A stretch of 64,000 nucleotides of DNA from an uncultured Candidatus Saccharibacteria bacterium (lineage in GTDB: Bacteria > Patescibacteriota > Minisyncoccia > Phycocordibacterales > JACNGX01), in assembly GCA_964621395.1 (NCBI GenBank), contig CAZULS010000002.1, positions 87,306 to 151,305 of the forward strand. The letters are read 5' to 3'. Of this stretch, positions 1,363 to 62,129 are shown piece after piece. The notes beneath the pieces were generated by a model, which had not been told where the DNA came from, did not search any database, and was given only the letters and a program-made list of their open reading frames with translations. A program made the translations under genes and the position numbers. Within the stretch, counting starts at the first letter, position 1, and each line of letters starts with the position of its first letter.

Positions 1363-1363
1363 A

Positions 1364-1507
1364 TACGCGAATTACGAATATGATACGAATATACGAATTA
1401 CGAATACTCCGTCTGCTGTCATTCCGGACTTGATCCGGAATCTACAGGGTTATATAACCCACTCACTTCTGCCTGGATTCCTGGTCACCAGAGCCAGGAA
1501 TGACAAG
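1364..1507. repeat. Composite intergenic repeat: A-type TACGAA-rich arm followed by a B-type hairpin element (GTCATTCCGGACTTGATCCGGAATC ... CCAGGAATGACA)
   Basis: CGAATTACGAATATGATACGAATATACGAATTACGAATACT is followed by two perfect hairpins. The same families recur more than 15 times in the window. Confidence 0.6.
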
Positions 1508-3616: not shown

Positions 3617-4924
3617 ATGCAGAAAGGCCTCACAAAACGTCTTGTGCGTGATATATCAAAGGGGAAAGGGGAGCCGGCGTGGATGCGGGAGTGCCGCTTC
3701 GCCGGTTTTTCCGCGTATCAGAAGATGGATATGCCGAAGTGGGGTCCGGATCTCTCAAAGCTCAATCTGAAAGACATTTCTTTCTATACGCCGGCGCCTG
3801 TTGGTGAAGCAGACACATGGGAGGGTGTGCCCGAGGATGTGCGTAAGCCGTTTGAGAAAGCGGGTGTGGCGAAAGAAAAAGACATGGGCGGAAGCGGTGC
3901 GCAATTTGATTCGGGTGTGGTGTATCATCACATTAAAGAAACGCTCACTCGCCAAGGGGTGATATTTATGAATATGGACAGTGCGCTTCGTGAGCATGAG
4001 ACACTGGTGCGGGAATATTTTGGCTCGGTGGTGCGTCCCGATGAGCATATCTTCACCGCCGCACACTATGCGGCAACGAGCGGCGGGACCTTTGTGTATG
4101 TGCCCAAGGGTGTGCGCGTGTCACTTCCTCTTCAGGCGTTTTTCTGGATGAATAGTGACGGGGGTGGACAATTTGAACACACGCTGATCGTTGCCGATGA
4201 GGGCTCGTCGGTCACCTATATCGAAGGATGCGGATCGCCGGCATATCGCAATGCCGCACTTCACGCAGGTGTGGTGGAAGTGATTGTGAAGAAGAATGCA
4301 TCGGTGGAATATATTAGCATTGAGAACTGGGCGAAAAATACCTACAATCTCAACACCAAACGTGCGCATGTGGAAGAAGGAGGATCGATAAAGTGGCTCG
4401 GAGGAAATATGGGCGCCGGTGTGACCATGCTGTATCCGACATCTGTTCTGAAAGGGAAAGGGGCACGGGCTCATCACGAGTCTGTGGCTGTGGCAGGGAG
4501 TGGCCAGGTGCAGGATACCGGTGGACGAGTGATTCATGCTGCGGCTGAGACATCCTCGACTTTGCATTCGCGAAGCGTGGTGCGCGAAGGGGGAGTATCG
4601 AATTTTCGCGGACATGTGGAAGTGAAAGAAGAGGCCTCAGGTGCACTTTCCTCTATGGTATGTGATTCGCTCATGCTCGATAATGATTCATCTTCGGCGT
4701 CGTATCCGGTCGTTGCTTCAAAGCGGAGTGATGTGGAGCTTTCGCATGAGGCACGGATTGGCTCGGTGGGGGAAGAAGAACTTTTCTACGCAGCAACGCG
4801 CGGTCTTTCAGAGAAGGAGGCCGTCCGGCTTATCGTGGGCGGATTTGTGCAGCCCGTCATCCGTGCCATTCCGATGGAATATGCACTTGAGTTTAATCGT
4901 CTGTTGGATGAGGAATTTAAGTGA
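3617..4924 (+). CDS. sufB: Fe-S cluster assembly protein SufB (SufB/SufD family)
   Basis: Motifs VTYIEGCGSPAY...NTKRAHVEEGGSIKWLGGNMG are typical of SufB/SufD beta-helix proteins. It is the first gene of a suf cluster. Confidence 0.8.
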   Translation: MQKGLTKRLVRDISKGKGEPAWMRECRFAGFSAYQKMDMPKWGPDLSKLNLKDISFYTPAPVGEADTWEGVPEDVRKPFEKAGVAKEKDMGGSGAQFDSGVVYHHIKETLTRQGVIFMNMDSALREHETLVREYFGSVVRPDEHIFTAAHYAATSGGTFVYVPKGVRVSLPLQAFFWMNSDGGGQFEHTLIVADEGSSVTYIEGCGSPAYRNAALHAGVVEVIVKKNASVEYISIENWAKNTYNLNTKRAHVEEGGSIKWLGGNMGAGVTMLYPTSVLKGKGARAHHESVAVAGSGQVQDTGGRVIHAAAETSSTLHSRSVVREGGVSNFRGHVEVKEEASGALSSMVCDSLMLDNDSSSASYPVVASKRSDVELSHEARIGSVGEEELFYAATRGLSEKEAVRLIVGGFVQPVIRAIPMEYALEFNRLLDEEFK

Positions 4925-4928
4925 CAAA

Positions 4929-5043
4929 TACTCTAGGTTAAACCTAGAAAACAAGTACCGATAGCAAAGAGAAAAACATTTTTCAACAGGACAATAGATT
5001 TTTGATATAAAATAACGATATTTTCTAGGTTTAACCTAGAGTA
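4929..5043. repeat. MITE-like element with perfect 23 bp terminal inverted repeats TACTCTAGGTTAAACCTAGAAAA / TTTTCTAGGTTTAACCTAGAGTA (family G)
   Basis: Perfect TIRs flank ~70 bp of AT-rich DNA between sufB and sufS. Confidence 0.6.
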
Positions 5044-5051
5044 AACACTGT

Positions 5052-6272
5052 ATGACACATATTGACACTAAAAAAATTAAATCCGATTTCCCTATCTTCG
5101 GAAACATGCCGGAAGGTTTTGCGTATCTCGACAATGCGGCAACAAGCCAAACCCCGCAGTGCGTGATTGATGCGCTTACGAAATACTACACTCATGAACG
5201 CGCCAATATTCATCGTGGCTCATACGCGCTTGCTGAAAAGGCGACGGCTCGATATGAAGAAGCACGTGAACGCATTGCTGATTTTATCGGTGCAGAGAAA
5301 GAGGAGATTGTGATAAGCGGCGGGGCAACACTTGCCTCTAATATGCTCATACTCATGCTTGAGGCCGCCCACACCTATCGCGCGGGAGAGGAGATTGTAA
5401 CGACTGTCTCCGAGCATCATTCATTGCTTGTGCCTCTCCAGGAGCTTGCTGAGCGCAAAGGCATGAACCTACGCTTCGCGCCTCTTTGTGAGGGTGGTAT
5501 GGTTGATGAAAAGGAAATGAAAAAGCTCATCACGCGGAAGACGCGCATCGTGGCTATGAGCATGGCAAGTAATGTGACAGGCGCGGTGATGCCATATGAG
5601 AGAGTGATGCATGCGGCAAAGGAGGCGGGTGCTATCGGTATCTTGGATGGCACGGCATATGTTGGTCATGCGCCGCTGTCTGTGGGTGAGATGTCGGCGG
5701 ATGCAATGTTTTTCTCAGGGCATAAGATGTGCGGGCCGATAGGTGTAGGGATTTTGTATATGAAAGATTCGCTGATGAGGAGATTGCGCCCGGTCTTTTT
5801 TGGCGGCGGTATCGTGGAAGAGGTTACAAAGAGTGGTGCACGATGCACTGATGCGCCGTATAAATTTGAAGCGGGAACTCAGCCGATTGCGGAAGTGATT
5901 GGATTGGGGGAAGCAGCTACGTATCTTTCCGGTATCGGGCTTGAATCTATTTCCGCGCATGTCCGTGAGCTTGTGGATTATGCACGTGCCGAGATTGGGA
6001 ATATTCAAGGCGTGAAGATCTACGCTGCACCGGCGGAAAAGAACATTGGTATTGTGTCGTTTACGGTTTCAAATATTCATCCGCATGACATTGCGCATAT
6101 TGCAGGAGAGGAGGGAGTGGCACTTCGTGCCGGGCATCACTGCGCGGAGCCATTGGTGCGAGAGCTTGGAGAGGTGGCGACTGCCCGCGCGAGTTTTTAT
6201 CTGTATAATACAAAGGAGGATGTCGATGCACTCGTGCGTGCAATTAAAAAAGCCCAGCACATATTCACATGA
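5052..6272 (+). CDS. sufS: cysteine desulfurase SufS (class V aminotransferase)
   Basis: PLP-lysine region SGHKMCGPIGVGILY and a C-terminal RAGHHCA motif. 406 aa. Confidence 0.85.
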   Translation: MTHIDTKKIKSDFPIFGNMPEGFAYLDNAATSQTPQCVIDALTKYYTHERANIHRGSYALAEKATARYEEARERIADFIGAEKEEIVISGGATLASNMLILMLEAAHTYRAGEEIVTTVSEHHSLLVPLQELAERKGMNLRFAPLCEGGMVDEKEMKKLITRKTRIVAMSMASNVTGAVMPYERVMHAAKEAGAIGILDGTAYVGHAPLSVGEMSADAMFFSGHKMCGPIGVGILYMKDSLMRRLRPVFFGGGIVEEVTKSGARCTDAPYKFEAGTQPIAEVIGLGEAATYLSGIGLESISAHVRELVDYARAEIGNIQGVKIYAAPAEKNIGIVSFTVSNIHPHDIAHIAGEEGVALRAGHHCAEPLVRELGEVATARASFYLYNTKEDVDALVRAIKKAQHIFT

Positions 6273-6274
6273 TT

Positions 6275-6362
6275 GGGTACGAAGTACGAATCAATACGAA
6301 CATACGAAGACAGGGCCTGGAAAAGTAATGTTCGTATGTTCGTACTCGTTCGTAGTTCGTAA
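6275..6362. repeat. A-family palindromic element GGGTACGAAGTACGAATCAATACGAACATACGAAG...TTCGTATGTTCGTACTCGTTCGTAGTTCGTAA
   Basis: Imperfect inverted repeat of TACGAA hexamer arrays. It starts 3 nt after the sufS stop and ends 5 nt before the sufU start. A near-identical copy lies at 6728..6816. Confidence 0.7.
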
Positions 6363-6366
6363 TCAT

Positions 6367-6726
6367 ATGTATAATTTATACCACGAAGAAATTATGGAAC
6401 ATGCGCGCAACCCTCTTCATAAAGGGGTGTGTGAGGACGCGACCCATACACATAAGGGTGTGAATGCAGGATGCGGTGACGAGATTTCTCTTTCTGTGAA
6501 AGTCTCTGACGGTATCATTGAAAGTATGTGCTTTGATGGAGAAGGATGTGCGCTTTCCGTGGCTGCGTGTGATATGCTTTCCGGTGTGGTGAAAGGCAAA
6601 AGGGTGGAGGATGTGCTTTGTATGTCGCCGAAGGACATCTATGATATGCTTGGTGTTTCGGTGACGCCATCGCGAACGAATTGCGCTCTCTTGGGTTTAA
6701 GAACACTGCATAAGATGCTAAGGTAG
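6367..6726 (+). CDS. sufU: Fe-S cluster scaffold SufU/IscU-like (NifU N-terminal domain)
   Basis: GCGDEISLSV...FDGEGCALSVAA cysteine motifs. The longer predicted ORF (6046..) merely translates the upstream A repeat. Confidence 0.8.
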   Translation: MYNLYHEEIMEHARNPLHKGVCEDATHTHKGVNAGCGDEISLSVKVSDGIIESMCFDGEGCALSVAACDMLSGVVKGKRVEDVLCMSPKDIYDMLGVSVTPSRTNCALLGLRTLHKMLR

Positions 6727-6727
6727 C

Positions 6728-6816
6728 GGGTACGAAGTACGAATCAATACGAACATACGAAGACAGGGTCTGGAAAAGTAATGTTCGTATGTTCGTACTC
6801 GTTCGTAGTTCGTAAC
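6728..6816. repeat. A-family palindromic element, second copy
   Basis: Differs from 6275..6362 by one substitution. It fills the sufU-sufC spacer. Confidence 0.7.
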
Positions 6817-6819
6817 TAT

Positions 6820-7563
6820 ATGATTTTTTCTACACACAATATTCATATCACGACAAAGGACGGTACTGAAGTGGTTTCGGGTGTGTCGCTTGAGCTTGAA
6901 AAAGGGAAGTGTGCGGTGCTCATGGGGAAAAACGGATCCGGTAAGAGCTCGTTTGTCCTTGGATGTATGGGTCATCCGCGATATGCCATTACGGAAGGGT
7001 CGGTGCAGGTGAGCGGTATGGAGATAACCACTCTCCCTACACACGAACGCGCACGAAACGGCATGTTTCTTTCTCCGCAAGCATCCCCGGCTATTTCGGG
7101 TGTTGCACTTGGGTCATTTATCCGGTCTGCCGATACCCATCTTCATCCGAAGCATGAGCATACACCACTTGCATTTCATACAGAGCTCACCAAGAAAGCG
7201 ACGGAGGCAGGTTTTGATGCCGAGCTCCTCTCTCGTGGTGTGAATACTGAGCTTTCAGGAGGACAGAAAAAACAAACCGAGATTATACAGCTTCTTGCAC
7301 TTGCACCGAAGGTTGCGCTTCTTGATGAGATTGATTCAGGTGTTGATATTGAAACACTCAATGCCGTATGCGAGAGTATTCGAAAGGCATGTGAAAAGGG
7401 CACGGCAGTTCTCGTGGTAACGCATAATCCGGAAGTGGTGAAGAAACTTTCTCCCAACCGTGTGTACGTTATGGATGGGGGGAGAATCGTTGCTTCAGGT
7501 GATGCTTCGCTTGCGGAGAAAGTGAAAGATGAAGGGTTTGGCGGAGTGGAGGGAGAGACATAA
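6820..7563 (+). CDS. sufC: Fe-S cluster assembly ATPase SufC
   Basis: Walker A GKNGSGKSS, ABC signature LSGGQKK and Walker B LLDEIDSG. The start is at the ATG that follows the repeat. Confidence 0.85.
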   Translation: MIFSTHNIHITTKDGTEVVSGVSLELEKGKCAVLMGKNGSGKSSFVLGCMGHPRYAITEGSVQVSGMEITTLPTHERARNGMFLSPQASPAISGVALGSFIRSADTHLHPKHEHTPLAFHTELTKKATEAGFDAELLSRGVNTELSGGQKKQTEIIQLLALAPKVALLDEIDSGVDIETLNAVCESIRKACEKGTAVLVVTHNPEVVKKLSPNRVYVMDGGRIVASGDASLAEKVKDEGFGGVEGET

Positions 7564-14427: not shown

Positions 14428-15672
14428 ATGATTTTCTTCCGCACACTCAAAACTGCATGGGTCGCACTCTTCATCAATAAAGCGCGATCGCTTTTGACGA
14501 TTCTCGGCATTGTGATTGGTGTCATGGCGATTATTCTGATTGTCTCTATCGGAAAGGGCGCCGAAAATCTCATTTTGGGAGAAATTCAAGGTCTCGGTGC
14601 CGACATCATCAGCGTGAATCCCGGAAAAGAGCCGACGGGACCGTCGGATTCGATGAACGCTTACCTTTCCGATTCGCTCAAGGAGCGCGAGGTCAATGCC
14701 CTGCTCAAAGAGAGTAATGTGCCGGGTGTCGTTGAAATAGCACCCGCGGTCATGGTGTCGGAGTCCGTATCGTATCGCGGAGAAACGTATCGCCCGCAGA
14801 TTTGGGGATGGTCGGCGAAAATGATGGCGGAGATGTTTGATTTGCGTTTGGCATCCGGCATGCTCTTTGGCGAGAAAGAAAATCGGCAGAAAGAGAGTGT
14901 CGTTGTTATCGGACAGAAAGTCGCCGAAGAGCTTTTTGAGGGCGCCGATCCGATCGGCAAAGCGATACGCATTAAAAATCATAGTTTTCGGGTTATCGGT
15001 CTTTTTGAGAAGACCGGACAGGTGATGTTTACCAATGTCGATGAGGTGATACTCATGCCGCCAAATACGGCGCAGACGTACATTCTCGGCATCGACCATT
15101 ACCATGAACTCATGATTCGAATGGAGAACGCCGATATGGTGGATCAGGCGGTGCTTGATATTGAACGCACGCTCCGTGATTTGCACGACATTACAGACCC
15201 GGACAAAGACGATTTTTATGTGAATACGGCAAGTGAAATGATTAATATGGTGGGCACCATCCTCGGCGTGCTCACCGCCTTTCTTGCCTCCATGGTGGCG
15301 ATTTCACTTGTGGTGGGCGGTATCGGCGTGATGAATATCATGCTCGTGTCGGTTTCGGAGCGCACGAAAGAAATCGGTTTGCGCAAGGCGGTGGGTGCCA
15401 CCGAATCTGATATCCTGCGGCAATTTTTGGTGGAAGCCATTGTGCTCACCGGTGCCGGCGGTGTGATTGGTACAATCATTGGCTTTGCACTCTCGGCTAT
15501 TGCTGCTGTCATTCTTTCGCAGTCACTTGGTGTGGACTGGGAGATGACCTTCCCGATTTCAGCAGCCGCTCTCGGCATTGGTGTTTCGGCCGCCGTCGGT
15601 CTTATCTTCGGACTATACCCCGCGCGCAAAGGGGCAAAGAAGAGCCCGATTGAGGCACTAAGGTATGAATAG
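14428..15672 (+). CDS. ABC transporter permease, FtsX/MacB family
   Basis: N-terminal TM helix, large periplasmic domain and C-terminal 3-TM FtsX domain. The start is adjacent to the ATPase stop. Confidence 0.85.
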   Translation: MIFFRTLKTAWVALFINKARSLLTILGIVIGVMAIILIVSIGKGAENLILGEIQGLGADIISVNPGKEPTGPSDSMNAYLSDSLKEREVNALLKESNVPGVVEIAPAVMVSESVSYRGETYRPQIWGWSAKMMAEMFDLRLASGMLFGEKENRQKESVVVIGQKVAEELFEGADPIGKAIRIKNHSFRVIGLFEKTGQVMFTNVDEVILMPPNTAQTYILGIDHYHELMIRMENADMVDQAVLDIERTLRDLHDITDPDKDDFYVNTASEMINMVGTILGVLTAFLASMVAISLVVGGIGVMNIMLVSVSERTKEIGLRKAVGATESDILRQFLVEAIVLTGAGGVIGTIIGFALSAIAAVILSQSLGVDWEMTFPISAAALGIGVSAAVGLIFGLYPARKGAKKSPIEALRYE

Positions 15673-22632: not shown

Positions 22633-22840
22633 ATGCTCCGCGGGAGCAAGCCAACTGCTTAGCTTGCGTCAGGGCTCGAAAGCCGCAGCCATGTTGGAGC
22701 GCTTGCGCGACGACGGCGAGGCCGGGTCGGAAGCACTTAGCAGAATACGAGCTTTAGCGAAGTGTTATGCTTAGTGACTTGTGACCGAGCACTTAGTATG
22801 GTCCCGGGTGAGGCATGTCCTCGGGGTTTTACAGATCGTA

Positions 22841-22869
22841 TTGACAAACAGCAAGCTGTCGATTAGAAT
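22841..22869 (+). promoter_or_regulatory. Candidate sigma-70 promoter TTGACA-N17-TAGAAT
   Basis: Consensus -35 and near-consensus -10. A ~170 nt transcript would end at the terminator CCGCC-TCAC-GGCGG-T7 near 23020..23048, and contains no ORF. Confidence 0.4.
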
Positions 22870-23104
22870 AGACACAGACATAAGGACCTTGTCTCATCAG
22901 CATCAAGTCCGAGCCTCTTGGCTCATTACCAAGCGGCTGAGAGGCCTAAAAAAATACGATGCCGTTGGCAGGGCCCTGCCGATGTTGATGGACTTGGTCC
23001 TTTTTTGTATAAAGCAAAACCGCCTCACGGCGGTCTTTTTTTGTGCCAGCCACTCACTTTTCACTGCTTAATACCTCAATAGGCTTATACAAAATGATAG
23101 GAAG

Positions 23105-23293
23105 TCAGATTAAGAAACTTGCCAGACCAATGGTGAAGAGGGAAGGAATAATGGGAAAAGGAAATATGTCTCCATAGAAACCAAACCACTCAAGCCAAAC
23201 CATAATAATAACCGACAGCGCACAAAGAAGCATGCACACGAAGAATGTTTTTAGAGAGGCATGTTCAATGGTGTGAATTGTTTGCTTGTTCAT
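23105..23293 (-). CDS. hypothetical small membrane protein (62 aa)
   Basis: Two hydrophobic helices. Weak call. Confidence 0.3.
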   Translation of the reverse strand: MNKQTIHTIEHASLKTFFVCMLLCALSVIIMVWLEWFGFYGDIFPFPIIPSLFTIGLASFLI

Positions 23294-23369
23294 GCGCGTA
23301 TAGTGTAGCGCAATCTACTTTTAAAGATTAATAACAGACAAGATAATTAAAATCAGGTATAGTTTCTGT

Positions 23370-23894
23370 ATGATGTTAGACGTCTCCAATCCATCTTTTG
23401 TAATCTCCCAAGCATCGATGTTCATTGCGACTGCTTTAGTATTTATATCGTATCAGTTTAGAGAAGGGAAAATATTTAGGTGGTTGTTTGTCGTTGCAGG
23501 AGCTCTTTCTGCTCTACATTTTATTTTGTTGGGGGCTATAACGGCGTCAATCATTGTTGCCATTAATAGTTTACGATGGTTAGTAAGTATTTTCTCCAAA
23601 GAACGAGCTTTTCTTTATTCTTTCGTGGTCTTAATGATTGGAATATTATTTTTTACATACGAAAACATTTTTTCATTTCTTCCAGCAATGGCGGGGGTCA
23701 TTGCAACATTTGCCATCTTTCATAAAGATGAATTGCAGACGAGAATAATACTTTTGATTGTAGGTTTAATGTGGCTGAGTTATAACTTCATTATTTTTAG
23801 TCCAGTGGGAATAATCTCAGAAATTTTATTTTTCTCATCGGGTATTATTGGTTATGTAAGATTAAGGGCATCACAGCGTGAAGAAACACGGTGA
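23370..23894 (+). CDS. hypothetical 5-TM membrane protein (YgjV-like?)
   Basis: 174 aa, multiple TM helices, ending 3 nt into the fba ORF. Confidence 0.45.
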
Positions 23895-23953
23895 AATACC
23901 CCCCCCAACTCATCCCTCCGTGGCATATCCCAGGGGTATGGTATACTTTCTTT

Positions 23954-24841
23954 ATGAACACAGAACAACTTTCAAGAATGAGACACGATAAGGGCTTTAT
24001 TGCGGCTCTTGATCAGAGCGGGGGATCGACTCCGCGGGCGCTTCTTTCATATGGCATCGGCGAGGATGCGTATGCCAATGAGGAAGAAATGTTTGCTCTT
24101 GTGCACGAGATGCGCACGCGCATTGCGACATCGCCTGCTTTTAGCGGAGAAAAAATACTCGGCGCAATTCTTTTTAAGCACACCATGGAGCATCAGATAG
24201 AGGGGAAAGATACGGCTGATTATCTTTGGGAAGAAAAAGGCATTGTTCCTTTTTTGAAGGTGGACAATGGTCTTCTAGAAGAGACAAACGGTGTGCAGCT
24301 AATGAAGCCGATGCCGGATCTCGATGAGCTTCTTCTCCGCGCGCGTGAAAAACACATATGGGGTACGAAAATGCGTTCGCTCATCAACGACTTACATGAG
24401 AAAGGGATACGGGAGGTTGTGGCACAGCAATTTGAAGTGGCGAAGCATATTATTGCACAAGGCTTTGTCCCTATTATCGAGCCGGAAGTGAGTATTGTTG
24501 CTCCGGAGAAGGCAGAGATTGAAGAGATGTTGGCGCAGGAAATACAATCACATCTCGACACGCTTTCAGACGATCAGCTTGTTATGCTTAAGCTCACACT
24601 TCCCGAAAAGAGCAATCTCTATGAAGCGTTTACAGAGCATCCGAATGTGGTGCGCGTTGTTGCACTTTCGGGCGGATACAGCAGGGAAGAGGCGAACAAT
24701 CGATTGAGCAAGAATTACAATGTCATCGCCAGTTTCTCCCGCGCACTCACGGAAGGGCTCTCTGTAGAGCAAAGTGATGAGGAGTTTAATACATCATTTG
24801 CTCAAGTCATTGAGAGTATTTATCAAGCGTCGATTACATAG
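23954..24841 (+). CDS. fba: fructose-bisphosphate aldolase class I
   Basis: [16 protein letters not shown] and active-site region resemble the bacterial class I FBA (Fda/FbaB type). The start is at MNTEQL. Confidence 0.8.
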
Positions 24842-35352: not shown

Positions 35353-36033
35353 ATGTCGATAGTGCTGATTGATAAACCGGAAGGCATCTCTTCTTTTGAT
35401 TGTATTCGGATACTGCAACGCCGAATAAAAGAAGAAGGAAAGGGAAAAGTAAAAATAGGACATGCAGGCACATTGGATCCAGCGGCGAGTGGCTTGCTTA
35501 TCATTGCCACGGGAAGCGACACAAAAAAGCTTACCGACTTTTTGAAATTGCCAAAAGAGTATGTTGCCGATGTACTCCTTGGTGTTGCGACGGATTCCGG
35601 CGATTCTGAAGGAAAGGAGATTGCACGTGTGGCACCGGAAGAATGCGGCGTGTCGGAAGAAGAGGCGAAAGAGGCTCTCCTAGGAATGGTGGGCACATTG
35701 ACGCTTCCGGTGTCGAAATATTCGGCGATAAAACAGGGCGGGGAAGCGCTGTATAAAAAGGCGCGTCGTGGTGAGGAGGTGGAGGCACCATTGCGGGAGA
35801 TGGTCGTGCATGAAACGGAACTCCTCGGTCTTTCAGAGCGAGAAGATGGATATAAAGTGGCACGTGCGCATTTCGATGTGGAAAGCGGCGTATATATTCG
35901 CTCGCTTGGTGAAGAATTGGGAAAGTGTTTGGGGTGCCCCGCGTCGCTTGTGTCACTCAGACGAACACGAATTGGTGATATGAGCGTGGAGGATGCGGAA
36001 GGCCCGGATGAAATTGATATCTCGGATATATGA
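35353..36033 (+). CDS. truB: tRNA pseudouridine(55) synthase TruB
   Basis: LIDKPEGISSFD...GHAGTLDPAASGLL catalytic Asp motif. The ORF track starts two codons earlier at a GTG. Confidence 0.85.
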   Translation: MSIVLIDKPEGISSFDCIRILQRRIKEEGKGKVKIGHAGTLDPAASGLLIIATGSDTKKLTDFLKLPKEYVADVLLGVATDSGDSEGKEIARVAPEECGVSEEEAKEALLGMVGTLTLPVSKYSAIKQGGEALYKKARRGEEVEAPLREMVVHETELLGLSEREDGYKVARAHFDVESGVYIRSLGEELGKCLGCPASLVSLRRTRIGDMSVEDAEGPDEIDISDI

Positions 36034-36040
36034 TATACTG

Positions 36041-36152
36041 GGGGTACGAAGTACGAACGTGTACGAACATACGAAGATTGAGTTGTTTCGGAAAATGAAT
36101 TGCAGGGTATACATTGTGTTCGTATGTTCGTATTTATTCGTAGTTCGTAATA
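36041..36152. repeat. A-family element, near-duplicate of 34162..34272
   Basis: GGGGGTACGAAGTACGAACGTGTACGAACATACGAAG...TTCGTATGTTCGTATTTATTCGTAGTTCGTAATAACC. Confidence 0.65.
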
Positions 36153-36155
36153 ACC

Positions 36156-36431
36156 ATGGACTCTATTGAACAACAACTTGAGACATTGCGTCAAGAGATA
36201 CGAAAAGGATTTTCAGGTATTGATCGCCGACTTTCGGCACTTGAAAAGGAAGAAGAGAATGATGTTATGAATATGACGGAAAAATTTCGTCGTGAGCTCT
36301 ACACATTCACCCAGGAGCTGAAACAACATTTTGAATATTTCTATGATCGGCTCGAAGACAGGGTGGAGGAAGTAAATCGCGACACCGACCGCATCGAACG
36401 TGCGGTGGATCGGATTGAGGATAAGCAATAA
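36156..36431 (+). CDS. hypothetical coiled-coil protein (91 aa)
   Basis: Highly charged heptad-like sequence with no recognisable family. Confidence 0.4.
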   Translation: MDSIEQQLETLRQEIRKGFSGIDRRLSALEKEEENDVMNMTEKFRRELYTFTQELKQHFEYFYDRLEDRVEEVNRDTDRIERAVDRIEDKQ

Positions 36432-36440
36432 GTACAAAGT

Positions 36441-37520
36441 ATGATGAAGCTTTCATATACAACATGTAGTGAAGATAAGACAATTCCTATTTATTCTGGA
36501 ACTAACGTATTAGGAAATCTAAAAAATCACCTTTCCAACACCGATTTCGATAAACTGGTTATTATCACAGATTCTAATGTTAATGATTTATGGGGAGAAG
36601 CACTGCTTGATGAGTTAGGAGGAATCGAAAAGGAAATGTTTGTTATCCAACCAGGGGAGCTGGCAAAAAGCCTCAATCAATATCAAAGTCTTTGTAATGA
36701 AATACTAAATAAAGAGATTACGAAAAAGACAGTCATTATTGCTTTTGGAGGTGGTGTTGTAGGAAATATCGCTGGTTTTGTTGCGGGAACGTTATTTCGA
36801 GGGATTAAATTTGTCCACATCCCCACGACTATCATGGCTCAGGCTGATAGTACTACTGGCGGTAAGCAGGCAATTAATACGGCTCATGGTAAAAACACTA
36901 TCGGCATGTTTTATGAGCCCGAGTTTATATTGATTGACTTTAATTTTTTAAAAACATTACCAGAGAGAGAAGTGAGAAGTGGTATTGCAGAATGTATTAA
37001 ACATGCGTTATGCCAAGATAAGAGATTATTGGATGAGCTCGAAAAAGGGATGGAGGGAATTTCTTTTCAGGACACAATTCAAAAGACGATATATTTGAAA
37101 TTGAAGACAATCAAAAAAGATCGGAAAGAAATAAATGAAGGCAAGATTCTCGTCTACGGACATACTATCGGACATGCAATCGAAATACTTTCTCACGGTA
37201 CGTTAAATCATGGTGAGGCTGTAAGTATCGGGATGTGTTGCGCCGCAACATTATCTAACGGGCTGGGGATACTCTCTTCTGAGAATAAGGAAAAACATTA
37301 TCGTGTTCTCAGAAAATGGAATTTGCCAACCAAAATTCCGCAGAATATAAAAGTAGAAGAAATCATCGATCGACTTCACTATGATAAGAAAATCAAAGAT
37401 AGTGATATTGAAATGATAGTATTGCGAGATATTGAAAAAGTATATAAAGTACGTGGAAGAGTGGGCTTGTCTATTGATGAAGAAACTCTCAAAAAATCAC
37501 TGGAACTTTGTTATAAATAA
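36441..37520 (+). CDS. 3-dehydroquinate synthase family protein (sugar phosphate cyclase superfamily)
   Basis: GGGVVGNIAGFVA NAD-binding motif and metal-binding His region HTIGHAIE. The gene is distinctly AT-rich (~35% GC) compared with its neighbours. Confidence 0.7.
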   Translation: MMKLSYTTCSEDKTIPIYSGTNVLGNLKNHLSNTDFDKLVIITDSNVNDLWGEALLDELGGIEKEMFVIQPGELAKSLNQYQSLCNEILNKEITKKTVIIAFGGGVVGNIAGFVAGTLFRGIKFVHIPTTIMAQADSTTGGKQAINTAHGKNTIGMFYEPEFILIDFNFLKTLPEREVRSGIAECIKHALCQDKRLLDELEKGMEGISFQDTIQKTIYLKLKTIKKDRKEINEGKILVYGHTIGHAIEILSHGTLNHGEAVSIGMCCAATLSNGLGILSSENKEKHYRVLRKWNLPTKIPQNIKVEEIIDRLHYDKKIKDSDIEMIVLRDIEKVYKVRGRVGLSIDEETLKKSLELCYK

Positions 37521-37562
37521 CATAAACATAGAAAAGCGCGGTGCCAAAGGCACCGCGCTTTT

Positions 37563-38180
37563 TTACTCCACAAAGGGGACAAACATGTATCCGGGATGTT
37601 CGTGCCGTTCTACTTCGCCGTTCTCATGCTTTATGAGAAGGACGATTGTGTCTTTCACAGGCGCGACGATATGTCCGCCCGGAGCGAGCTGCTCTATCCA
37701 GAAAGCAGGGATGTCTTCCGGGAGTTCAGCCGCGCAGATAATCCTCTGAAATGGTGCCTCCTCAGGTAAACCTTCTTGAGCGCTTTTTTCATGAATAGTC
37801 ACTCTTCCGTCGCTTAAAAAACCGTAGGATTCAATCGCTTTCTTTGACATGTTCGCAAGCTCGGAAACGATTTCCATACCGTGCACATGTCCCTTTTCAC
37901 CGACGATATGTCCGAGGAGTGCACTTTGCCATCCCGATCCAGAGCCGACATCAAGAACAGTGTCGCCCAGCTGCGCCTTGAGAAGCTCAAGCATAAAGAC
38001 GACGGTTTCCGGCTGGGAAATGGTTTGTCCGTAGCCGATTGAAAGAGGGTAGTTTTGGTATGCTTCAAGGCGTTTTTCTTTCGGTACGAATCGTGCACGG
38101 TCAATTGCACGTAAAGCACCCTCAATACGCGGATCGGTGAGAATATTTCGTTCTTTGAGTTGGAGAAGGAGGTGTTCCAT
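37563..38180 (-). CDS. pcm: protein-L-isoaspartate O-methyltransferase
   Basis: GYGQTISQP and VLDVGSGSGWQSALL SAM-binding motifs. Confidence 0.85.
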   Translation of the reverse strand: MEHLLLQLKERNILTDPRIEGALRAIDRARFVPKEKRLEAYQNYPLSIGYGQTISQPETVVFMLELLKAQLGDTVLDVGSGSGWQSALLGHIVGEKGHVHGMEIVSELANMSKKAIESYGFLSDGRVTIHEKSAQEGLPEEAPFQRIICAAELPEDIPAFWIEQLAPGGHIVAPVKDTIVLLIKHENGEVERHEHPGYMFVPFVE

Positions 38181-52074: not shown

Positions 52075-52485
52075 ATGTCAGCAACTACAAGCAAAAATAC
52101 CTATATCGAAGCAGTGGGACGTCGAAAAACGGCAGTGGCACGCGTGCGTATCACTGAAAGTGCAAAGCCGTCGTTTACGGTCAACGGTCGTGAGCTCGCT
52201 GAATATTTCCCAACAGACGCTTTGAAGAAGATTGCTCAAGAGGCGATTGCAACATCCGGTCTTGCAACCAAGTTTGCCGTATCGGCGAAGGTGGTGGGAA
52301 GCGGCATTCACGCCCAGGCTGAGGCGGTGCGCCATGGACTCTCTCGTGCGCTTGTGAAGGTGGATGCTGAAACTCGTAAAGAGCTCAAACCGGCAGGATT
52401 TCTCAAGCGTGACCCGCGAAGTGTGGAACGAAAGAAATTCGGTCTCAAGAAAGCCCGCCGCGCATCACAGTGGTCTAAACGCTAA
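52075..52485 (+). CDS. rpsI: 30S ribosomal protein S9
   Basis: C-terminal GLKKARRASQWSKR. Preceded by the AGTTTATCGTTTTTATTTACTTTC motif. Confidence 0.9.
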   Translation: MSATTSKNTYIEAVGRRKTAVARVRITESAKPSFTVNGRELAEYFPTDALKKIAQEAIATSGLATKFAVSAKVVGSGIHAQAEAVRHGLSRALVKVDAETRKELKPAGFLKRDPRSVERKKFGLKKARRASQWSKR

Positions 52486-52592
52486 GCAAAGCTTAGCGTC
52501 GACCGAACATCCGGAGGATGTTTTAGGTCTAAACGCTAATATACATACTCAAACCAAAACCGCTCGCAGGGGCGGTTTTGCTGTATACAAAA

Positions 52593-52630
52593 ACGGGCGA
52601 AACAGCAGAGCTGTTTCGCCCGTTTTGGCA
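52593..52630 (+). terminator. Intrinsic terminator AACGGGCGAAACAGC-AGA-GCTGTTTCGCCCGTTTTGG
   Basis: 15 bp perfect stem followed by a T-run. It closes the r-protein operon. Confidence 0.7.
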
Positions 52631-52734
52631 CACACCCAGCTCCCCAAAAGCACCAACGTTGGGACAACGTTGTCCCAACGTTACCTATTTCTGATGAGGT
52701 TTTTGATGGGCAGGATGTGATATACTTTCAGTAT

Positions 52735-52893
52735 ATGAAACATGTGCGAAAAATTATAAAGAATGGGGCCGGCTCATACTATGTAAATGTGCCCAAGAAA
52801 GTGGTGAAGGAGCTTCGCTTGAAGGAGCGACAAAAGGTGACGGTGCGCGCTTCCGGCGCAAAAATTGTAATTGAGGACTGGAAAGAGAAGTAA
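52735..52893 (+). CDS. AbrB/MazE/SpoVT-family small DNA-binding protein (52 aa; below the ORF-track length cutoff)
   Basis: MKHVRKIIKNGAGSYYVNVPKKVVKELRLKERQKVTVRASGAKIVIEDWKEK is a swapped-hairpin AbrB-like motif. It has its own upstream TATACT box and downstream terminator. Confidence 0.55.
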   Translation: MKHVRKIIKNGAGSYYVNVPKKVVKELRLKERQKVTVRASGAKIVIEDWKEK

Positions 52894-52895
52894 AG

Positions 52896-52935
52896 AAAGC
52901 AGTGCGGGCATTTCATGCCCGCACTGCTTTTGTGT
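52896..52935 (+). terminator. Intrinsic terminator AGCAGTGCGGGCAT-TTC-ATGCCCGCACTGCTTTTGTG
   Basis: 14 bp perfect stem followed by a T-run. Confidence 0.7.
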
Positions 52936-53141
52936 GATAAAATATAGTCGATGGATATTGAGGATTTCAATACTTGCACCAATATATAATTTTAGATATA
53001 GTAATAATACCATCCACAACCAACCTTACCAAATGCATAAAATATATCCTGCCATTCAATATAACAAAAGCACCAATTATTCTATATGAGCAGTTTAAAA
53101 GACAGTTTAGTGAGGTTAGTTAGGATTGGTATAATATGGTT

Positions 53142-53327
53142 ATGAAGAACACACGCACCAAAACTAATTCAGGTCAATTCACCGCTAAGCGCTTTGACAC
53201 AAAGATGTCGACTATCGAAAAGACGTATAATGTTGATCTCGGCGTTCGTGGTGATATGAAGTTAGGGAATTATCTTAAGGAAAAAGGATATCCCTCCCTT
53301 TCAAAGATGTTAAAAGATGCATCGTGA
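53142..53327 (+). CDS. hypothetical small protein (61-63 aa), first gene of an AT-rich two-gene module
   Basis: TATAAT at 53130..53135 puts the transcription start at or next to the ATG, i.e. a leaderless mRNA. Basic, and the C-terminus may be helix-turn-helix-like. Its last 11 nt overlap the start of the next gene. Confidence 0.4.
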   Translation: MKNTRTKTNSGQFTAKRFDTKMSTIEKTYNVDLGVRGDMKLGNYLKEKGYPSLSKMLKDAS

Positions 53328-53886
53328 TTTGAATATGGCTGGATCAAATTTTCCTTTTATTCCAAAGAGTGTCTTACGGAAGAATCTCGATGAATCGTTT
53401 GAACATATACTGACACTACTCCCGTTTACCGAGTCAAAGAGCTATAATGAGGCTGCAAAGAGCGCTTTTCGTAAGACGATTATTATTTACACCGCATCGA
53501 TTGTCGAAGCGCTTGTTTTTTATGTGATTGATACAGAATTCTCTGACGATGACGTTAGAGAGTATTACAGTACATGGGAGTTAAAAGATAAGAAGATGCT
53601 CCATGTTCTCGACAGTGAACGTAAGATTGTTGCTGGAACATACTGTAGAGTTTTGGCAAAGTCCGGGAAAGGTAAGATGAATCTTGGACAGATTATTCGA
53701 TTTTTGAAGGACAAGGAAATTCTCGACGAGGATTTATATAAGAAAGTCGATCAGATTCGTGTTTTCCGTAATGAACAGCATATTGGAACACACAGCAATG
53801 TTCCGATATATGGAAAGAAAAAGTTAGAAAAAGCTTTCTCAATTGCAAAAGATGTGAAAGAGTTCGTGAGAGAAAGATATGAGTAA
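53317..53886 (+). CDS. hypothetical all-alpha protein, possibly HEPN-like (Rx6H motif RVFRNEQH)
   Basis: 189 aa, AT-rich, translationally coupled to the upstream small ORF (ATGCATCGTGA overlap). I recognise no family. The HEPN assignment is speculative. Confidence 0.4.
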   Translation: MHRDLNMAGSNFPFIPKSVLRKNLDESFEHILTLLPFTESKSYNEAAKSAFRKTIIIYTASIVEALVFYVIDTEFSDDDVREYYSTWELKDKKMLHVLDSERKIVAGTYCRVLAKSGKGKMNLGQIIRFLKDKEILDEDLYKKVDQIRVFRNEQHIGTHSNVPIYGKKKLEKAFSIAKDVKEFVRERYE

Positions 53887-53965
53887 CATATTTTTGTCTC
53901 CCCGGAAAATAACATTCCAGATCAAAAATTGACAAAGAAGATTTTTGGGTTACAATGGTTTCGCT

Positions 53966-58889: not shown

Positions 58890-60488
58890 ATGAAACAGCG
58901 TCTCAAAGACGTGTGGTGGACCGTTATTCCATGGATACTCCAAACAATCGTGTGGATTCCCGCGCAGATTATTCTGCACTTCTTCCTTCGCCTTCGTGTA
59001 GAAGGATATAAACGGATCAAGCACATTCGCGGACCGGTTATTTTCGTATCCAATCATACAAGCTACTGGGATCCGATTATGATTCCGGCGGCGTTGCCAC
59101 TCTTTTCTCGATTTTTCCCAATGATGTATGTGGCACGTGAGCGCAATTATTACAGACGTGCCAAACACTTTATCGGTGCGACATCGTTTAAGGTATGGGG
59201 GGCGCATCCGGCACACGGCGGACTGTGTGATTATGCTCGCTCACTCGATGACCATGAACGGTTTCTAAACCAAGGAAGAAGTGTGTGCATGTTTCCTGAA
59301 GGGACGCTACCGGAAGAGGAAGACAGCATCCAACCTTTCAAAGGAGGCATTGGCTATTTGGTATGTCATACAAAAGCAACGATTATTCCTGTCTCCATTA
59401 CAGGGATGTTTTCTGTAACAGCAAAAGATTTCTTCAGCAGGAAACGTCGTGCCACACTCACATTCGGCGAGCCGCTTACCAACAACCCGCTCTGCGTCGT
59501 TGCCAAGGGGGAAACACCCGATGTGGAGTGTTACAAAAAAACCGCCGAAAAGATTAGAGAAGAATTAAGCGTTCTTTTTTCAATTGGTTACAATACGATG
59601 CACGATTATCTTCCCGAACAAGAATATCATCATGCTTTCGCTAGACCATTTCGCGCTATTGGTCGTTTTATACTCAATCATTTACATCTTGTTCCGGGTA
59701 TGAATAATATAGCGCGAAAGACAAACAGAGGCGCGCGAGAAGTACTGGAGAACAAAACAACGCACCAGGCCCTGGAAGTGCTGTATCGGAAAGGGGACAC
59801 AGGGAAAAAAGAAACATTTCTGGGAAACATATTTCGTTCACTATGGTTTTTTACCGACAATGCGAAAGGAGTCAGAAACCGTCTTAGAATTGTAAAAAAT
59901 GGAATTGTGAGAGAGCTCGTAAACATTCATAGCGATGAATGTCACAATAATACTGTGCACATGCTCAGTATTGCGTCTGGATCGGCGCGCGCGGTGCTGG
60001 AAGCGATACAGCGAGCAAGAGAAATGAATGTCGAAAAGGACATTCATGTAACCTTTTTAGATAAAAGTCCTCAGGCAATTTCATACAGTCGCACATTGGC
60101 ACAATCGGTATGTGATGAAGATGTTCTCAAAAAAACACACATGCAATGGGTGACTGACACTGCAAGCAATTTTACAAAGTACGCAGATGAGGGGTCTTTA
60201 GATATTATTGAAATGGTCGGCCTGCTTGACTACTTCGATGACGAAAAAGCGCAACGTCTTTTTGAAAAAGCGTACCGCTACTTACGTTCAGGAGGCGTGT
60301 TCATTACTGCCAATATTGACTATAATAAAGAGTATGCATTCGTGAACAACTTTGTCGATTGGCGTATGATATATCGTTCATCGCACGAGTTAGCAGCGTT
60401 AGCGCGTCGTGCTGGCTTTAATGCACAGTACATGCGCGTATATACAGAACCTCTCGGAGTTCACAATGTGCTCATCGTGAGGAAATAA
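58890..60488 (+). CDS. fusion protein: N-terminal 1-acyl-sn-glycerol-3-phosphate acyltransferase-like (PlsC/LPLAT) domain + C-terminal class I SAM-dependent methyltransferase-like domain
   Basis: HxxxxD box NHTSYWD and the FPEGT box in the first ~200 aa. The C-terminal ~200 aa have Rossmann-like methyltransferase motifs (SIASGSARAVLE, FLDKSPQAI, DIIEMVGLLDY, LRSGGVFITAN). Confidence 0.55.
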   Translation: MKQRLKDVWWTVIPWILQTIVWIPAQIILHFFLRLRVEGYKRIKHIRGPVIFVSNHTSYWDPIMIPAALPLFSRFFPMMYVARERNYYRRAKHFIGATSFKVWGAHPAHGGLCDYARSLDDHERFLNQGRSVCMFPEGTLPEEEDSIQPFKGGIGYLVCHTKATIIPVSITGMFSVTAKDFFSRKRRATLTFGEPLTNNPLCVVAKGETPDVECYKKTAEKIREELSVLFSIGYNTMHDYLPEQEYHHAFARPFRAIGRFILNHLHLVPGMNNIARKTNRGAREVLENKTTHQALEVLYRKGDTGKKETFLGNIFRSLWFFTDNAKGVRNRLRIVKNGIVRELVNIHSDECHNNTVHMLSIASGSARAVLEAIQRAREMNVEKDIHVTFLDKSPQAISYSRTLAQSVCDEDVLKKTHMQWVTDTASNFTKYADEGSLDIIEMVGLLDYFDDEKAQRLFEKAYRYLRSGGVFITANIDYNKEYAFVNNFVDWRMIYRSSHELAALARRAGFNAQYMRVYTEPLGVHNVLIVRK

Positions 60489-60503
60489 GCCGAAAGTTTT
60501 AAT

Positions 60504-62129
60504 ATGTTAGACTATCAAGTTATTTCATTATTTGCTGTAGCGATTATCAGCGCCTTGTTTAGTTATGTCATTTCAGGGAAAAGAGGAGAAAAAAGTAAAC
60601 GAACGGAGACCACTCTTTTCTCGCTCATAGCTATTTTCATCGGTCTGTGGGCACTCAATATATCGTTCTTTATACAGCAACAATATGGTGACTTTACGTT
60701 TCTCTTTGTGAACGCATATTATGTGTCAGCGGCGTTTATTCCTCTCCTCTTTTTCTATTTTGCCGTTTCATATGTCAACGATAAACATATAAAGCTCGTC
60801 CATAATGTTATTTGCGCCCTCCCACTCCTTTTTCTTATTGGTGCATTGTTGGTTGATCCCTATTTCCTTATTACGTCGATTACTCCTCAAAACAGTGGTG
60901 TCACATTTAATATTCCCGTATACATTGCATATTCGGCTTATTTTTTTGTTTTTATTGTTTGGACATACAGTTTACTTGTCTACGCATTTGTAAAGGAGAA
61001 AAATACCATACAGCGCGTACAATTGAAACTGATTATCATAGGAACCCTTGTTTCGTTTTTATTGGGGCTATTTTTTAATCTCATTCTTCCGTGGTTTAAC
61101 ATTTATGAACACATATGGCTTGGACCAGTCTTTTCTTTAATCTTCGTGTTTTCAATGGGGTATGCAATTATCCGTCACAACCTTTTCAACATAAAAGTCG
61201 TCACGACAAAAATATTGGTATTCGGCCTACTTTTTTTCATTTTTGTTCGATTTCTCATTGCGGAAAATCTTGAGAATAAAATAACAGAAAGTGTACTCTT
61301 TCTTGTCACAACAATTGCCGGATTGTTTATTATACGAAATGTGATGCAGGAAATTCAGGTGCGTGAAGAGGCAGAGAAACTTGCTGAGCAGCTTCGAAAG
61401 GCGAACGCGCGGTTACGAGAGCTAGATCGGCAAAAGTCGGAGTTTGTTTCTATTGCTTCGCATCAATTGCGGACACCGCTCACTGCCATTAAAGGTTATT
61501 CATCCATGCTTTTGGATGGTTCGTTTGGAAAAATGTGTAAGGGAAGTGTCGAGCCGGTGGAGAAAATTTATCGTTCGTCGCAGCGGCTTGTGGGTGTCGT
61601 GGAAGATTTTCTCAATGTGACTCGCATTGAGCAAGGGAGGATGAGTTATGATTTCCGACCGGTCGATATGCACCATATCTGTGAGAATGTTGTGGAAGAA
61701 CTTTCGTTTGGGGCAAAAGACAAAGGATTGGATTTGATATTCAAATGCGGAAAGCCCGGGGCAATCGTGTCGGCTGACCAAGGGAAAATTCGTCAGGTTG
61801 CGCTCAATCTCGTGGACAATGCGGTGAAATACACCGAGAAAGGGGAGGTAGAGGTGTGTTTGAGAGATGACGATCCGAAACACGTTGTCTTTGAAGTGGT
61901 TGACACCGGTATCGGTATCCCCGAAGAATTTAAAAAGCGCATGTTTGAAAAATTTAGTCGTGCCGATAATAGCGGTGCGTATCACGCCAACGGCTCCGGT
62001 ATCGGTTTGTATATTGTAAAAGAAATTGTTGAAGCACATAAAGGGACAGTCAGCGTTGATTCAAAAGAAGGGAAGGGTGCGACATTTACCGTCACATTGC
62101 CGCGTGTGAAGGAGGAGACGAAAGGGTAA
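60504..62129 (+). CDS. sensor histidine kinase with multi-TM N-terminal sensor domain
   Basis: ~7 TM helices, coiled-coil linker, HisKA H-box SIASHQLRTPL and HATPase_c N/G1/G2 boxes (DNAVKYT, DTGIGI, GSGIGL). No response regulator is adjacent. Confidence 0.8.
   Translation: MLDYQVISLFAVAIISALFSYVISGKRGEKSKRTETTLFSLIAIFIGLWALNISFFIQQQYGDFTFLFVNAYYVSAAFIPLLFFYFAVSYVNDKHIKLVHNVICALPLLFLIGALLVDPYFLITSITPQNSGVTFNIPVYIAYSAYFFVFIVWTYSLLVYAFVKEKNTIQRVQLKLIIIGTLVSFLLGLFFNLILPWFNIYEHIWLGPVFSLIFVFSMGYAIIRHNLFNIKVVTTKILVFGLLFFIFVRFLIAENLENKITESVLFLVTTIAGLFIIRNVMQEIQVREEAEKLAEQLRKANARLRELDRQKSEFVSIASHQLRTPLTAIKGYSSMLLDGSFGKMCKGSVEPVEKIYRSSQRLVGVVEDFLNVTRIEQGRMSYDFRPVDMHHICENVVEELSFGAKDKGLDLIFKCGKPGAIVSADQGKIRQVALNLVDNAVKYTEKGEVEVCLRDDDPKHVVFEVVDTGIGIPEEFKKRMFEKFSRADNSGAYHANGSGIGLYIVKEIVEAHKGTVSVDSKEGKGATFTVTLPRVKEETKG

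Follow-up and report, generated by a model that had tools for sequence, protein, structure and literature searches.

What is encoded in the AT-rich stretch that separates the ribosomal protein gene rpsI from grpE in this genome, and how did it come to lie there? The window, by which we mean the whole of the DNA analysed (64,000 nt of contig CAZULS010000002.1 from an uncultured Candidatus Saccharibacteria bacterium), carries three co-directional open reading frames (ORFs) between these two genes. An earlier note, made from the sequence alone, had given their products as 52, 63 and 189 amino acids (aa) and had proposed a candidate toxin-antitoxin (TA) or defence cassette; all three ORFs are present at the positions claimed for them (Table 1). 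On balance, we think it probable that the region carries a mobile two-gene conflict module of the TA or abortive-infection type, formed by a small basic protein and a HEPN-domain protein, that has entered this Paceibacterota (Patescibacteria) genome between the terminators of rpsI and the promoter of grpE. RNase activity, toxicity, neutralisation and a TA or defence function are what we infer for this pair from the comparisons that follow.

HEPN RNases are common toxins in TA, abortive-infection and CRISPR-associated systems. The suspicion that the 189-aa ORF encodes a HEPN-like protein was borne out by structure prediction, as an AlphaFold2 model built from the family alignment (predicted local distance difference test, pLDDT, 92.6; predicted template modelling score, pTM, 0.84) has the predicted alpha-helical up-down bundle of the HEPN superfamily (Pfam clan CL0291), with a beta-hairpin inserted at residues 86-112 (numbered here and below on the 189-aa ORF). 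The structural matches of the model include the HEPN domains of Roquin and sacsin, Csm6 and AbiA, and the same proteins were retrieved by Foldseek against the PDB with weak E-values and probabilities of up to 0.97. A profile search of the PDB by sequence with the HEPN family gave no match. The only Pfam family matched is DUF4145 (PF13643), a HEPN family found fused to restriction enzymes or encoded near them (PMC3710099); nine of 39 relatives match it at E <= 0.01, the best at 1.1e-5, and two relatives have a precomputed PF13643 hit.

The predicted catalytic residues are strongly conserved. L34, F51, T54, I57, T59, E64, A65, R151, N152 and H155 are invariant in a 39-sequence alignment, the family motif is [RK]xxRNxxH, and RxxRNxxH is kept even in distant relatives of 208-216 aa. 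The HEPN signature, Rx4-6H with a polar residue after the R, is represented by R148-x6-H155, and the Rx6H motif RVFRNEQH to which the earlier note had drawn attention is therefore real; its invariant residues, however, are R151, N152 and H155, while R148 alternates between R and K. In the DUF4145 RNase RAZR/PD-T7-4, defence depends on the equivalent residues, R146 and H154 (PMC13017515).

A word-indexed search with the HEPN protein retrieved 84 clusters (31-89% identical in the 39-sequence alignment), and all those with a named source come from Patescibacteria lineages. When 1.84 billion representatives were searched exhaustively with a profile, 483 clusters were found at E <= 1e-3 and 251 at E <= 1e-10; the best 150 of the 483 are stand-alone proteins, mostly of 175-215 aa, together with shorter fragments and one 252-aa fusion. 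The homologues have their first residue at the position of M7, and alignment to the family profile sets in 8 nt past the stop codon of the upstream small gene. Because the homologues begin there, translation likely starts at ATG 53335, giving a protein of 183 aa. The 11-nt ATG/stop overlap (ATGCATCGTGA) on which translational coupling had been argued is present for the longest ORFs, but the likely real start leaves a 7-nt gap instead.

The two genes form a conserved pair, as had been supposed. The small gene lies directly upstream in 9/9 loci found via the HEPN protein (HEPN queries 37-100% identical), and look-ups from the small protein in two loci (L010 and L011) revealed a 185-aa gene 5-6 nt downstream. 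A metagenome scan with the small protein gave 80 loci, and a HEPN-family gene follows in all of those where the small protein is at least ~53% identical and there is room downstream. Full pairs were scored in 46 rows of the locus table; the HEPN match mostly starts about -4 to +13 nt from the small-gene stop, and the rest within ~45 nt. Among 34 non-redundant pairs, mean identity to the window proteins is 70% for the small protein and 43% for the HEPN protein, and the divergences of the two are correlated (r = 0.75). One relative of 252 aa (P0203) is a natural read-through fusion in which the small domain is N-terminal to HEPN. In four loci (L095, L100, L104 and L106) an intact small gene stands upstream of a HEPN gene with a truncation or frameshift, which may be the pattern expected for a toxin or may stem from metagenome assembly errors.

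This arrangement, in which two small co-directional genes with the partner upstream are close or overlapping and are conserved as a pair, is that of type II TA systems, and the distribution is likewise patchy and suggestive of mobility, with flanking genes that differ in every locus. The neighbours of the pair elsewhere are often defence genes, including restriction systems (Table 1), which agrees with the defence-cassette context that had been proposed.

The partner is a strongly basic protein with a disordered K/R-rich N-terminus and three short helices. Homology searches returned 103 clusters of ~59 aa (45-98% identical in a 39-sequence alignment), with Kaiserbacteria and other Patescibacteria among the source names. 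A sequence search of the PDB gave only chance matches, and there was no credible one in Pfam, NCBIfam, PADLOC or PHROGs; scanned against NCBIfam and PHROGs, the three proteins of the region gave nothing, or family matches that were at chance level or of unknown function. Judged by its sequence, the small protein represents an undescribed and very conserved family. The earlier note had cast it as a small DNA-binding protein, a role that fold and family searches do not support, since none of the DNA-binding folds of type II antitoxins (ribbon-helix-helix, RHH; helix-turn-helix, HTH; AbrB; Phd/YefM) was found in it. A likeness of its C-terminal half to SAP/HeH-like helix-loop-helix domains was considered and dropped, as no tool result supports it. 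In one metagenome-assembled genome (MAG) from NCBI, an intact small gene (L003, 4815-4994) is uncalled in the source annotation. Genes of this family are probably under-annotated; often missed as they are, they merit a family model of their own.

If the module works as its layout suggests, a leaderless bicistronic mRNA would be made from the operon and the small basic protein would be translated first. The HEPN protein would dimerise to form a composite RNase site able to cleave cellular or phage RNA, and the small protein would bind it and hold it inactive, or gate it, until phage infection, loss of the partner or another such trigger freed the HEPN protein and led to growth arrest. Hints of such direct binding, both indirect, are the P0203 fusion and the correlated divergence of the two proteins.

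Several observations weigh against a TA or abortive-infection module. A scan of PADLOC-DB v2.0 at E <= 1 returned 0 families for the HEPN, small and AbrB-like proteins, and searches turned up no relative of the HEPN protein in IMG/VR, no match to it on PLSDB plasmids and none to the small protein in GenBank phages. The invariant pair R151-H155 is an Rx3H arrangement, outside the canonical Rx4-6H range, and the Rx6H assignment needs R148, which is K in 5/39 relatives; the HEPN protein of the window itself scores 17.7 bits against DUF4145 (E = 0.0038), under the cut-off of 23.1. No antitoxin, DNA-binding or other known fold was recognised for the small protein, which is moreover the more conserved partner in 34/34 pairs, unusual for a simple labile antitoxin. 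Some contexts of the pair are purely housekeeping (L003, and L179, where it lies between frr and an M50 peptidase gene), and we infer mobility from patchy contexts only. Finally, a domain that senses or targets would account for the fusions in which the small domain is joined to HNH (L139) or HEPN (P0203) just as well as an antitoxin would.

The main alternative gives the small protein the part of a sensor, an adaptor or a subunit that binds nucleic acid, and makes the pair a split version of a RAZR-like or Abi-NTD-like defence protein. The small protein would recognise a phage component or an RNA or DNA target and then activate or target HEPN, or elsewhere TIR, SIR2 or HNH effectors. Its N-terminal position in both fusions, its occurrence upstream of many unrelated effectors and its basic, disordered tail are all compatible with such a role, as is its high conservation, which would be expected if it bound something invariant. 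There are precedents too, in that RAZR joins a small N-terminal domain to a DUF4145 HEPN domain and is activated by phage proteins (PMC13017515), and the 2013 survey of HEPN proteins allows Abi N-terminal domains to be both inhibitor and sensor (PMC3710099). However, a small gene that comes first and is tightly coupled to its neighbour is in the classical antitoxin-toxin order (PMC3710099), and the survival of intact small genes next to decayed HEPN genes is easier to reconcile with protection than with activation. Rapid evolution is usual in sensors of phage proteins, but the small protein is very conserved, and a nucleic-acid-binding fold was not detected in it. We regard the sensor alternative as rather unlikely, and return to the partner as a putative antitoxin or gatekeeper.

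Within Patescibacteria, the small family is locked to one HEPN family. In other bacteria its members are found directly upstream of two or more other HEPN families (DUF4145 proper and LA2681) and of TIR or SIR2-STALD genes, lie next to cyclase or restriction genes, or are fused to HNH. A distant subfamily (44-49% identical), partly on high-GC contigs from outside the candidate phyla radiation (CPR), is without the window-type HEPN family. A distant homologue is encoded on a conjugative plasmid of Bradyrhizobium, in a cluster that also has caspase-family, TIR, Fic and ImmA/IrrE+HTH genes (L182, Table 1). Within a type I restriction operon that holds no HEPN gene (L013), the small gene ends 2 nt before hsdR. 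Because its distant members adjoin or are fused with other HEPN families, TIR, SIR2, cyclase, HNH and restriction genes, the small-protein superfamily appears to behave as a promiscuous partner of toxic effector domains. It is conceivable, and we put it forward tentatively, that the 61-aa protein is the founding member of a widespread family of small basic proteins that act as promiscuous antitoxins or gatekeepers for toxic defence effectors.

Were that so, the module would stand for a new class of two-gene abortive-infection systems and would join the few defence modules that typify the ultra-small CPR bacteria, offering a handle on defence in Patescibacteria, where little has been characterised. 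A small protein that neutralised or gated such diverse effectors would also be a new building block for the catalogue of bacterial immune systems. What is new here is the partner family and its broad association with effectors, absent from every library searched; the HEPN effector and the classical two-gene layout are known, and specialists will find the concept unsurprising unless the promiscuity of the partner proves functional.

The closest behavioural parallel is Panacea (PanA, DUF4065), which Kurata et al. are said to have described in PNAS in 2022 as a hyperpromiscuous antitoxin domain. The likeness is one of behaviour only, in that the partner family of the window, whose antitoxin role is putative, adjoins three HEPN families, TIR, SIR2, HNH, cyclase and restriction enzymes; there is no homology between the two, and the Pfam scan gave no DUF4065 match.

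Among HEPN-based systems, HepT-MntA dyads such as Shewanella SO_3166/SO_3165 and the Aphanizomenon HEPN/MNT pair have a HEPN toxin that acts as an RNase through its R...H motif and a partner encoded upstream (PMC3710099). The window pair is also a two-gene dyad with the partner gene upstream of HEPN, but its 61-aa partner, which matches no Pfam family or fold, lacks a nucleotidyltransferase domain; this excludes neutralisation by AMPylation. Similarity to HepT itself is negligible (2/39 relatives, E = 0.006), the window HEPN protein being longer, with the beta-hairpin at 86-112 and the motif RNxxH. In RnlA-RnlB and LsoA-LsoB, where HEPN RNase toxins are paired with small antitoxin proteins, the toxins are large and multi-domain and the partners share no sequence similarity with that of the window; in rnlAB, the antitoxin gene is downstream of the toxin gene.

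RAZR/PD-T7-4 is a single polypeptide in which a Cys4 zinc ribbon is followed by a DUF4145 HEPN domain, and it is an anti-phage abortive-infection RNase activated by phage proteins (PMC13017515). It resembles the window pair in its divergent DUF4145-like HEPN domain with conserved R and H and in the combination of a small N-terminal module with HEPN. The small module of the window is, however, separate, free of cysteines and unrelated in sequence, and is fused only in P0203; the N-terminal cysteine cluster is absent from the HEPN protein whether it is read as 183 or 189 aa, and there is no PADLOC match. As with DUF4145 proteins, restriction enzymes lie near the window-type module in several loci (L006, L010, L011 and L013), but the HEPN family of the window is a group of its own, stand-alone and ~175-215 aa long, and was always found with the small partner in the loci examined.

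How the cassette came to lie in a ribosomal protein neighbourhood was addressed by comparing the junction in the GTDB representatives with the closest S9 proteins, which are <=69% identical and come from Paceibacterota MAGs; 59 loci (within L014-L093) hold both S9 and DnaK. The gene order rpoA-rplQ-rplM-rpsI...dnaK is kept in 59/59, with 641-5001 nt between rpsI and dnaK. That gap is filled by grpE alone in 26 loci and holds unrelated, variable accessory genes in the other 33, and none of the three cassette proteins occurs at the rpsI-dnaK junction in any of the 59. Since 26 relatives have only grpE there and none carries the cassette, we regard it as an insertion, and the synteny thus supports the earlier proposal that it was inserted beside a conserved operon junction. 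Five of the inserted ORFs in relatives were scanned and proved to be GSDH, a D-Ala-D-Ala carboxypeptidase, a dehydrogenase-phosphatase fusion, DUF5671 and one of unknown type; further ORFs at this junction, outside those five, include glycine-rich proteins. By this comparison of sequences, the rpsI-grpE junction varies in content from genome to genome, and the cassette is specific to its lineage.

The same comparison does not support the idea that the cassette stands in place of hrcA. Relatives in which grpE comes straight after rpsI speak against hrcA as the usual occupant of the junction; the inserts scanned are unrelated, and a search for a CIRCE/HrcA operator (controlling inverted repeat of chaperone expression) upstream of grpE found none.

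Around the island, a search for att-like direct repeats yielded a single one, 17 nt long and 82% identical (52851/53915), which was judged to be due to chance. At the left edge, a 14-nt segment comprising the 3' end of rpsI and its stop codon is duplicated 54 nt downstream (Table 1); there are two exact copies, 0.02 matches were expected in a search with 1 mismatch allowed, and 0/100 shuffles gave two. This duplication may have been left, as a target-site or integration scar, where the variable region has its left edge.

The composition of the region is unusual. The window as a whole has a G+C (GC) content of 46.9%, rpsI, grpE and dnaK 50-53%, and the span 52735-53886 37.9%, and the core of the insertion is the kilobase with the least GC anywhere in the 64 kb, ~3.4 standard deviations under the mean of 1-kb windows. 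The AT-rich island reported earlier is thus real as regards this core (36.4%), but the ~32% GC given for it fits only the 242-nt spacer between the AbrB-like gene and the small gene (33.1%). Three other stretches of the window are also under 40% GC (~22750-24300, ~35950-37750 and ~60000-61750), and their genes are ordinary: a YgjV-like membrane protein and a class-I aldolase, dehydroquinate synthase, and a seven-transmembrane (7TM) histidine kinase. For this reason composition alone is weak evidence for transfer, and its use as proof of horizontal transfer was dropped in favour of synteny.

The expression signals of the pair are conserved as well. A TATAAT box (53130-53135), from which a leaderless transcript had been proposed, directly abuts ATG 53136, and a start at ATG 53142 gives a 61-aa product, as in the closest homologue (P0085). 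In 33 unique homologous loci, we looked for a TAnnnT hexamer with at least 4/6 matches and found one ending 5-9 nt before the small-gene ATG in 29 (mode 6 nt), compared with 6.3 +/- 2.2 in shuffled sequences (maximum 15 in 1000) and 4/33 in shifted registers. Most of the hexamers among those listed are preceded by TGn; the layout is seen in 27% of other long ORFs of the same contigs, and a Shine-Dalgarno-like motif lies upstream of the small gene in 2/33 loci only. A leaderless mRNA of the small gene is well supported by this comparison, which upholds the original proposal, and the conserved TGnTAnnnT-N6-ATG layout serves, on comparative grounds, as a clean example of a leaderless operon in Patescibacteria. 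The AbrB-like gene (TGaTATACT-N8-ATG) and grpE (TTGACA-16-TACAAT-N9-ATG) share a near-start -10 layout, and leaderless or near-leaderless mRNAs may be common in the lineage, not specific to the cassette.

The third ORF raises a second alternative, which is that the island is a unit of three genes that move together, with the AbrB/MazE-like protein as true regulator or antitoxin and the small protein as an accessory. The 52-aa protein is probably AbrB/MazE/SpoVT-like: four of six relatives match the Pfam family MazE_antitoxin (PF04014), the best at E = 4.9e-5, but the window protein itself matches it weakly (E = 0.0023; 18.3 bits, under the cut-off of 24.7), so that the family assignment made earlier is sub-threshold; its best PDB profile match is the 56-aa protein C56 (7xi6, E = 0.029). 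Its family is tiny (6 clusters in 5.8 billion proteins), and other homologues lie between GmrSD/HNH and Fic genes or adjoin a YgjP-like gene. A second trio exists in an unrelated context (L106, 3672-4727), where an AbrB-like gene (47% identical), a 145-nt spacer, a small gene and a decayed HEPN gene, broken into three frames, follow one another in the same order. These facts would fit a three-gene island. On the other hand, a profile search of all loci showed that the AbrB-like gene is absent from the other ~42 pair loci, with L106 as the sole further case. The window copy also has its own promoter-like TGaTATACT box and a perfect 16-bp terminator hairpin, as reported before; with this terminator and the 242-nt spacer, it has no cognate toxin immediately downstream in an operon, as a MazE-type antitoxin would. 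In composition it is host-like (45% GC; 57% GC at third codon positions, GC3), unlike the island. We consider a three-gene unit improbable and treat the AbrB-like gene as a companion met now and then, which might have a regulatory role, outside the core of the two-gene module. Its terminator hairpin could work in both directions.

That the pair is instead a non-toxic housekeeping or regulatory one, for example an RNA-processing or ligand-binding factor tied to translation or chaperone genes, would be in keeping with the several copies that lie between housekeeping genes (the window, L179 and L011) and with possible read-through into grpE-dnaK, no terminator-like site having been found between the HEPN gene and grpE, but this is very improbable in view of the invariant R, N and H of the catalytic motif, contexts that differ in every lineage, the absence of the pair from the junction in 59 relatives, the frequent defence-gene neighbours, the existence of decayed copies, and a spread of only 483 clusters in 1.84 billion representatives, which is not a core-gene pattern.

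Table 1. Positions of the features discussed, in the window and in homologous loci (L numbers)
Location	Feature	Position	Strand	Remarks
Window	rpsI	52075-52485	+	left flank of insertion
Window	exact 14-nt direct repeat GGTCTAAACGCTAA	52472-52485 and 52526-52539	+	rpsI 3' end including stop codon, duplicated 54 nt downstream
Window	rpsI-abrB spacer	52480-52740	+	six near-perfect stem-loops in a row; minimum free energy (MFE) -114 kcal/mol, z = -10.4 vs 200 shuffles
Window	terminator-like hairpin within rpsI-abrB spacer	52582-52634		one of the six stem-loops
Window	palindrome within rpsI-abrB spacer	52655-52682		one of the six stem-loops
Window	extended -10-like box TGaTATACT	52718-52726	+	8 nt before AbrB-like ATG; layout like small-gene promoter
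Window	AbrB/MazE/SpoVT-like ORF (probable), 52 aa	52735-52893	+	45% GC
Window	AT-rich core of insertion	52894-53944	n/a	36.4% GC
Window	terminator hairpin of AbrB-like gene	52896-52930	palindromic	16-bp stem, 3-nt loop; 100% complementary
Window	extended -10 promoter TGgTATAAT	53127-53135	+	ends 6 nt before ATG 53142
Window	small basic partner gene, 61 aa	53142-53327	+	longest ORF from 53136, 63 aa
Window	HEPN-domain gene, DUF4145-like, 183 aa	53335-53886	+	longest ORF from 53317, 189 aa; predicted RNase effector/toxin
Window	predicted catalytic motif RVFRNEQH (R148-x2-R151-N152-x2-H155)	53758-53781	+	aa 148-155 of 189-aa ORF
Window	grpE promoter, sigma-70-type TTGACA-16-TACAAT	53929-53956	+	11/12 matches; immediately right of insertion; ATG 9 nt later
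Window	grpE	ATG 53966	+	called as 206 aa; right flank
L004	pair			near EcoRI-type methylase with GmrSD/HNH
L006	pair			near HsdR
L008	pair			near Shedu SduA_C
L010	pair			near type III restriction-modification with DUF4391/SNF2
L011	pair			near RadC, HsdM, NYN
L013	small gene without HEPN	3947-6980		type I restriction operon: NYN, HsdS, AAA_15/21 ATPase, small gene, HsdR
L112	closer-group small gene			after Type ISP restriction enzyme; contig ends before downstream partner position
L130	distant small protein	1092-1382		position given for the site with DUF3892 immediately upstream; contig unrelated to L141
L141	distant small protein	413-700		position given for the site with DUF3892 immediately upstream; contig unrelated to L130
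L139	165-aa fusion	130-627		small domain N-terminal to HNH endonuclease
L140	distant small protein			beside HEPN_LA2681
L152	distant small protein			beside NucS/DUF5655 nuclease
L154	distant small protein			beside SIR2_2+STALD
L156, L167	distant small protein			beside DUF4145 proper
L157	distant small protein			beside HNH_5
L164	distant small protein			beside YfbU
L166	distant small protein			beside cyclase, next to BrxL
L182	69-aa small-protein homologue	15197-15406		Bradyrhizobium sp. BTAi1 plasmid pBBta01, NC_009475.1; 12 nt upstream of TIR protein

The six stem-loops packed into the ~250-nt spacer between rpsI and the AbrB-like gene far exceed the needs of one terminator. One possibility is that successive insertions left them behind as stacked terminators, another that they form an intergenic repeat element.

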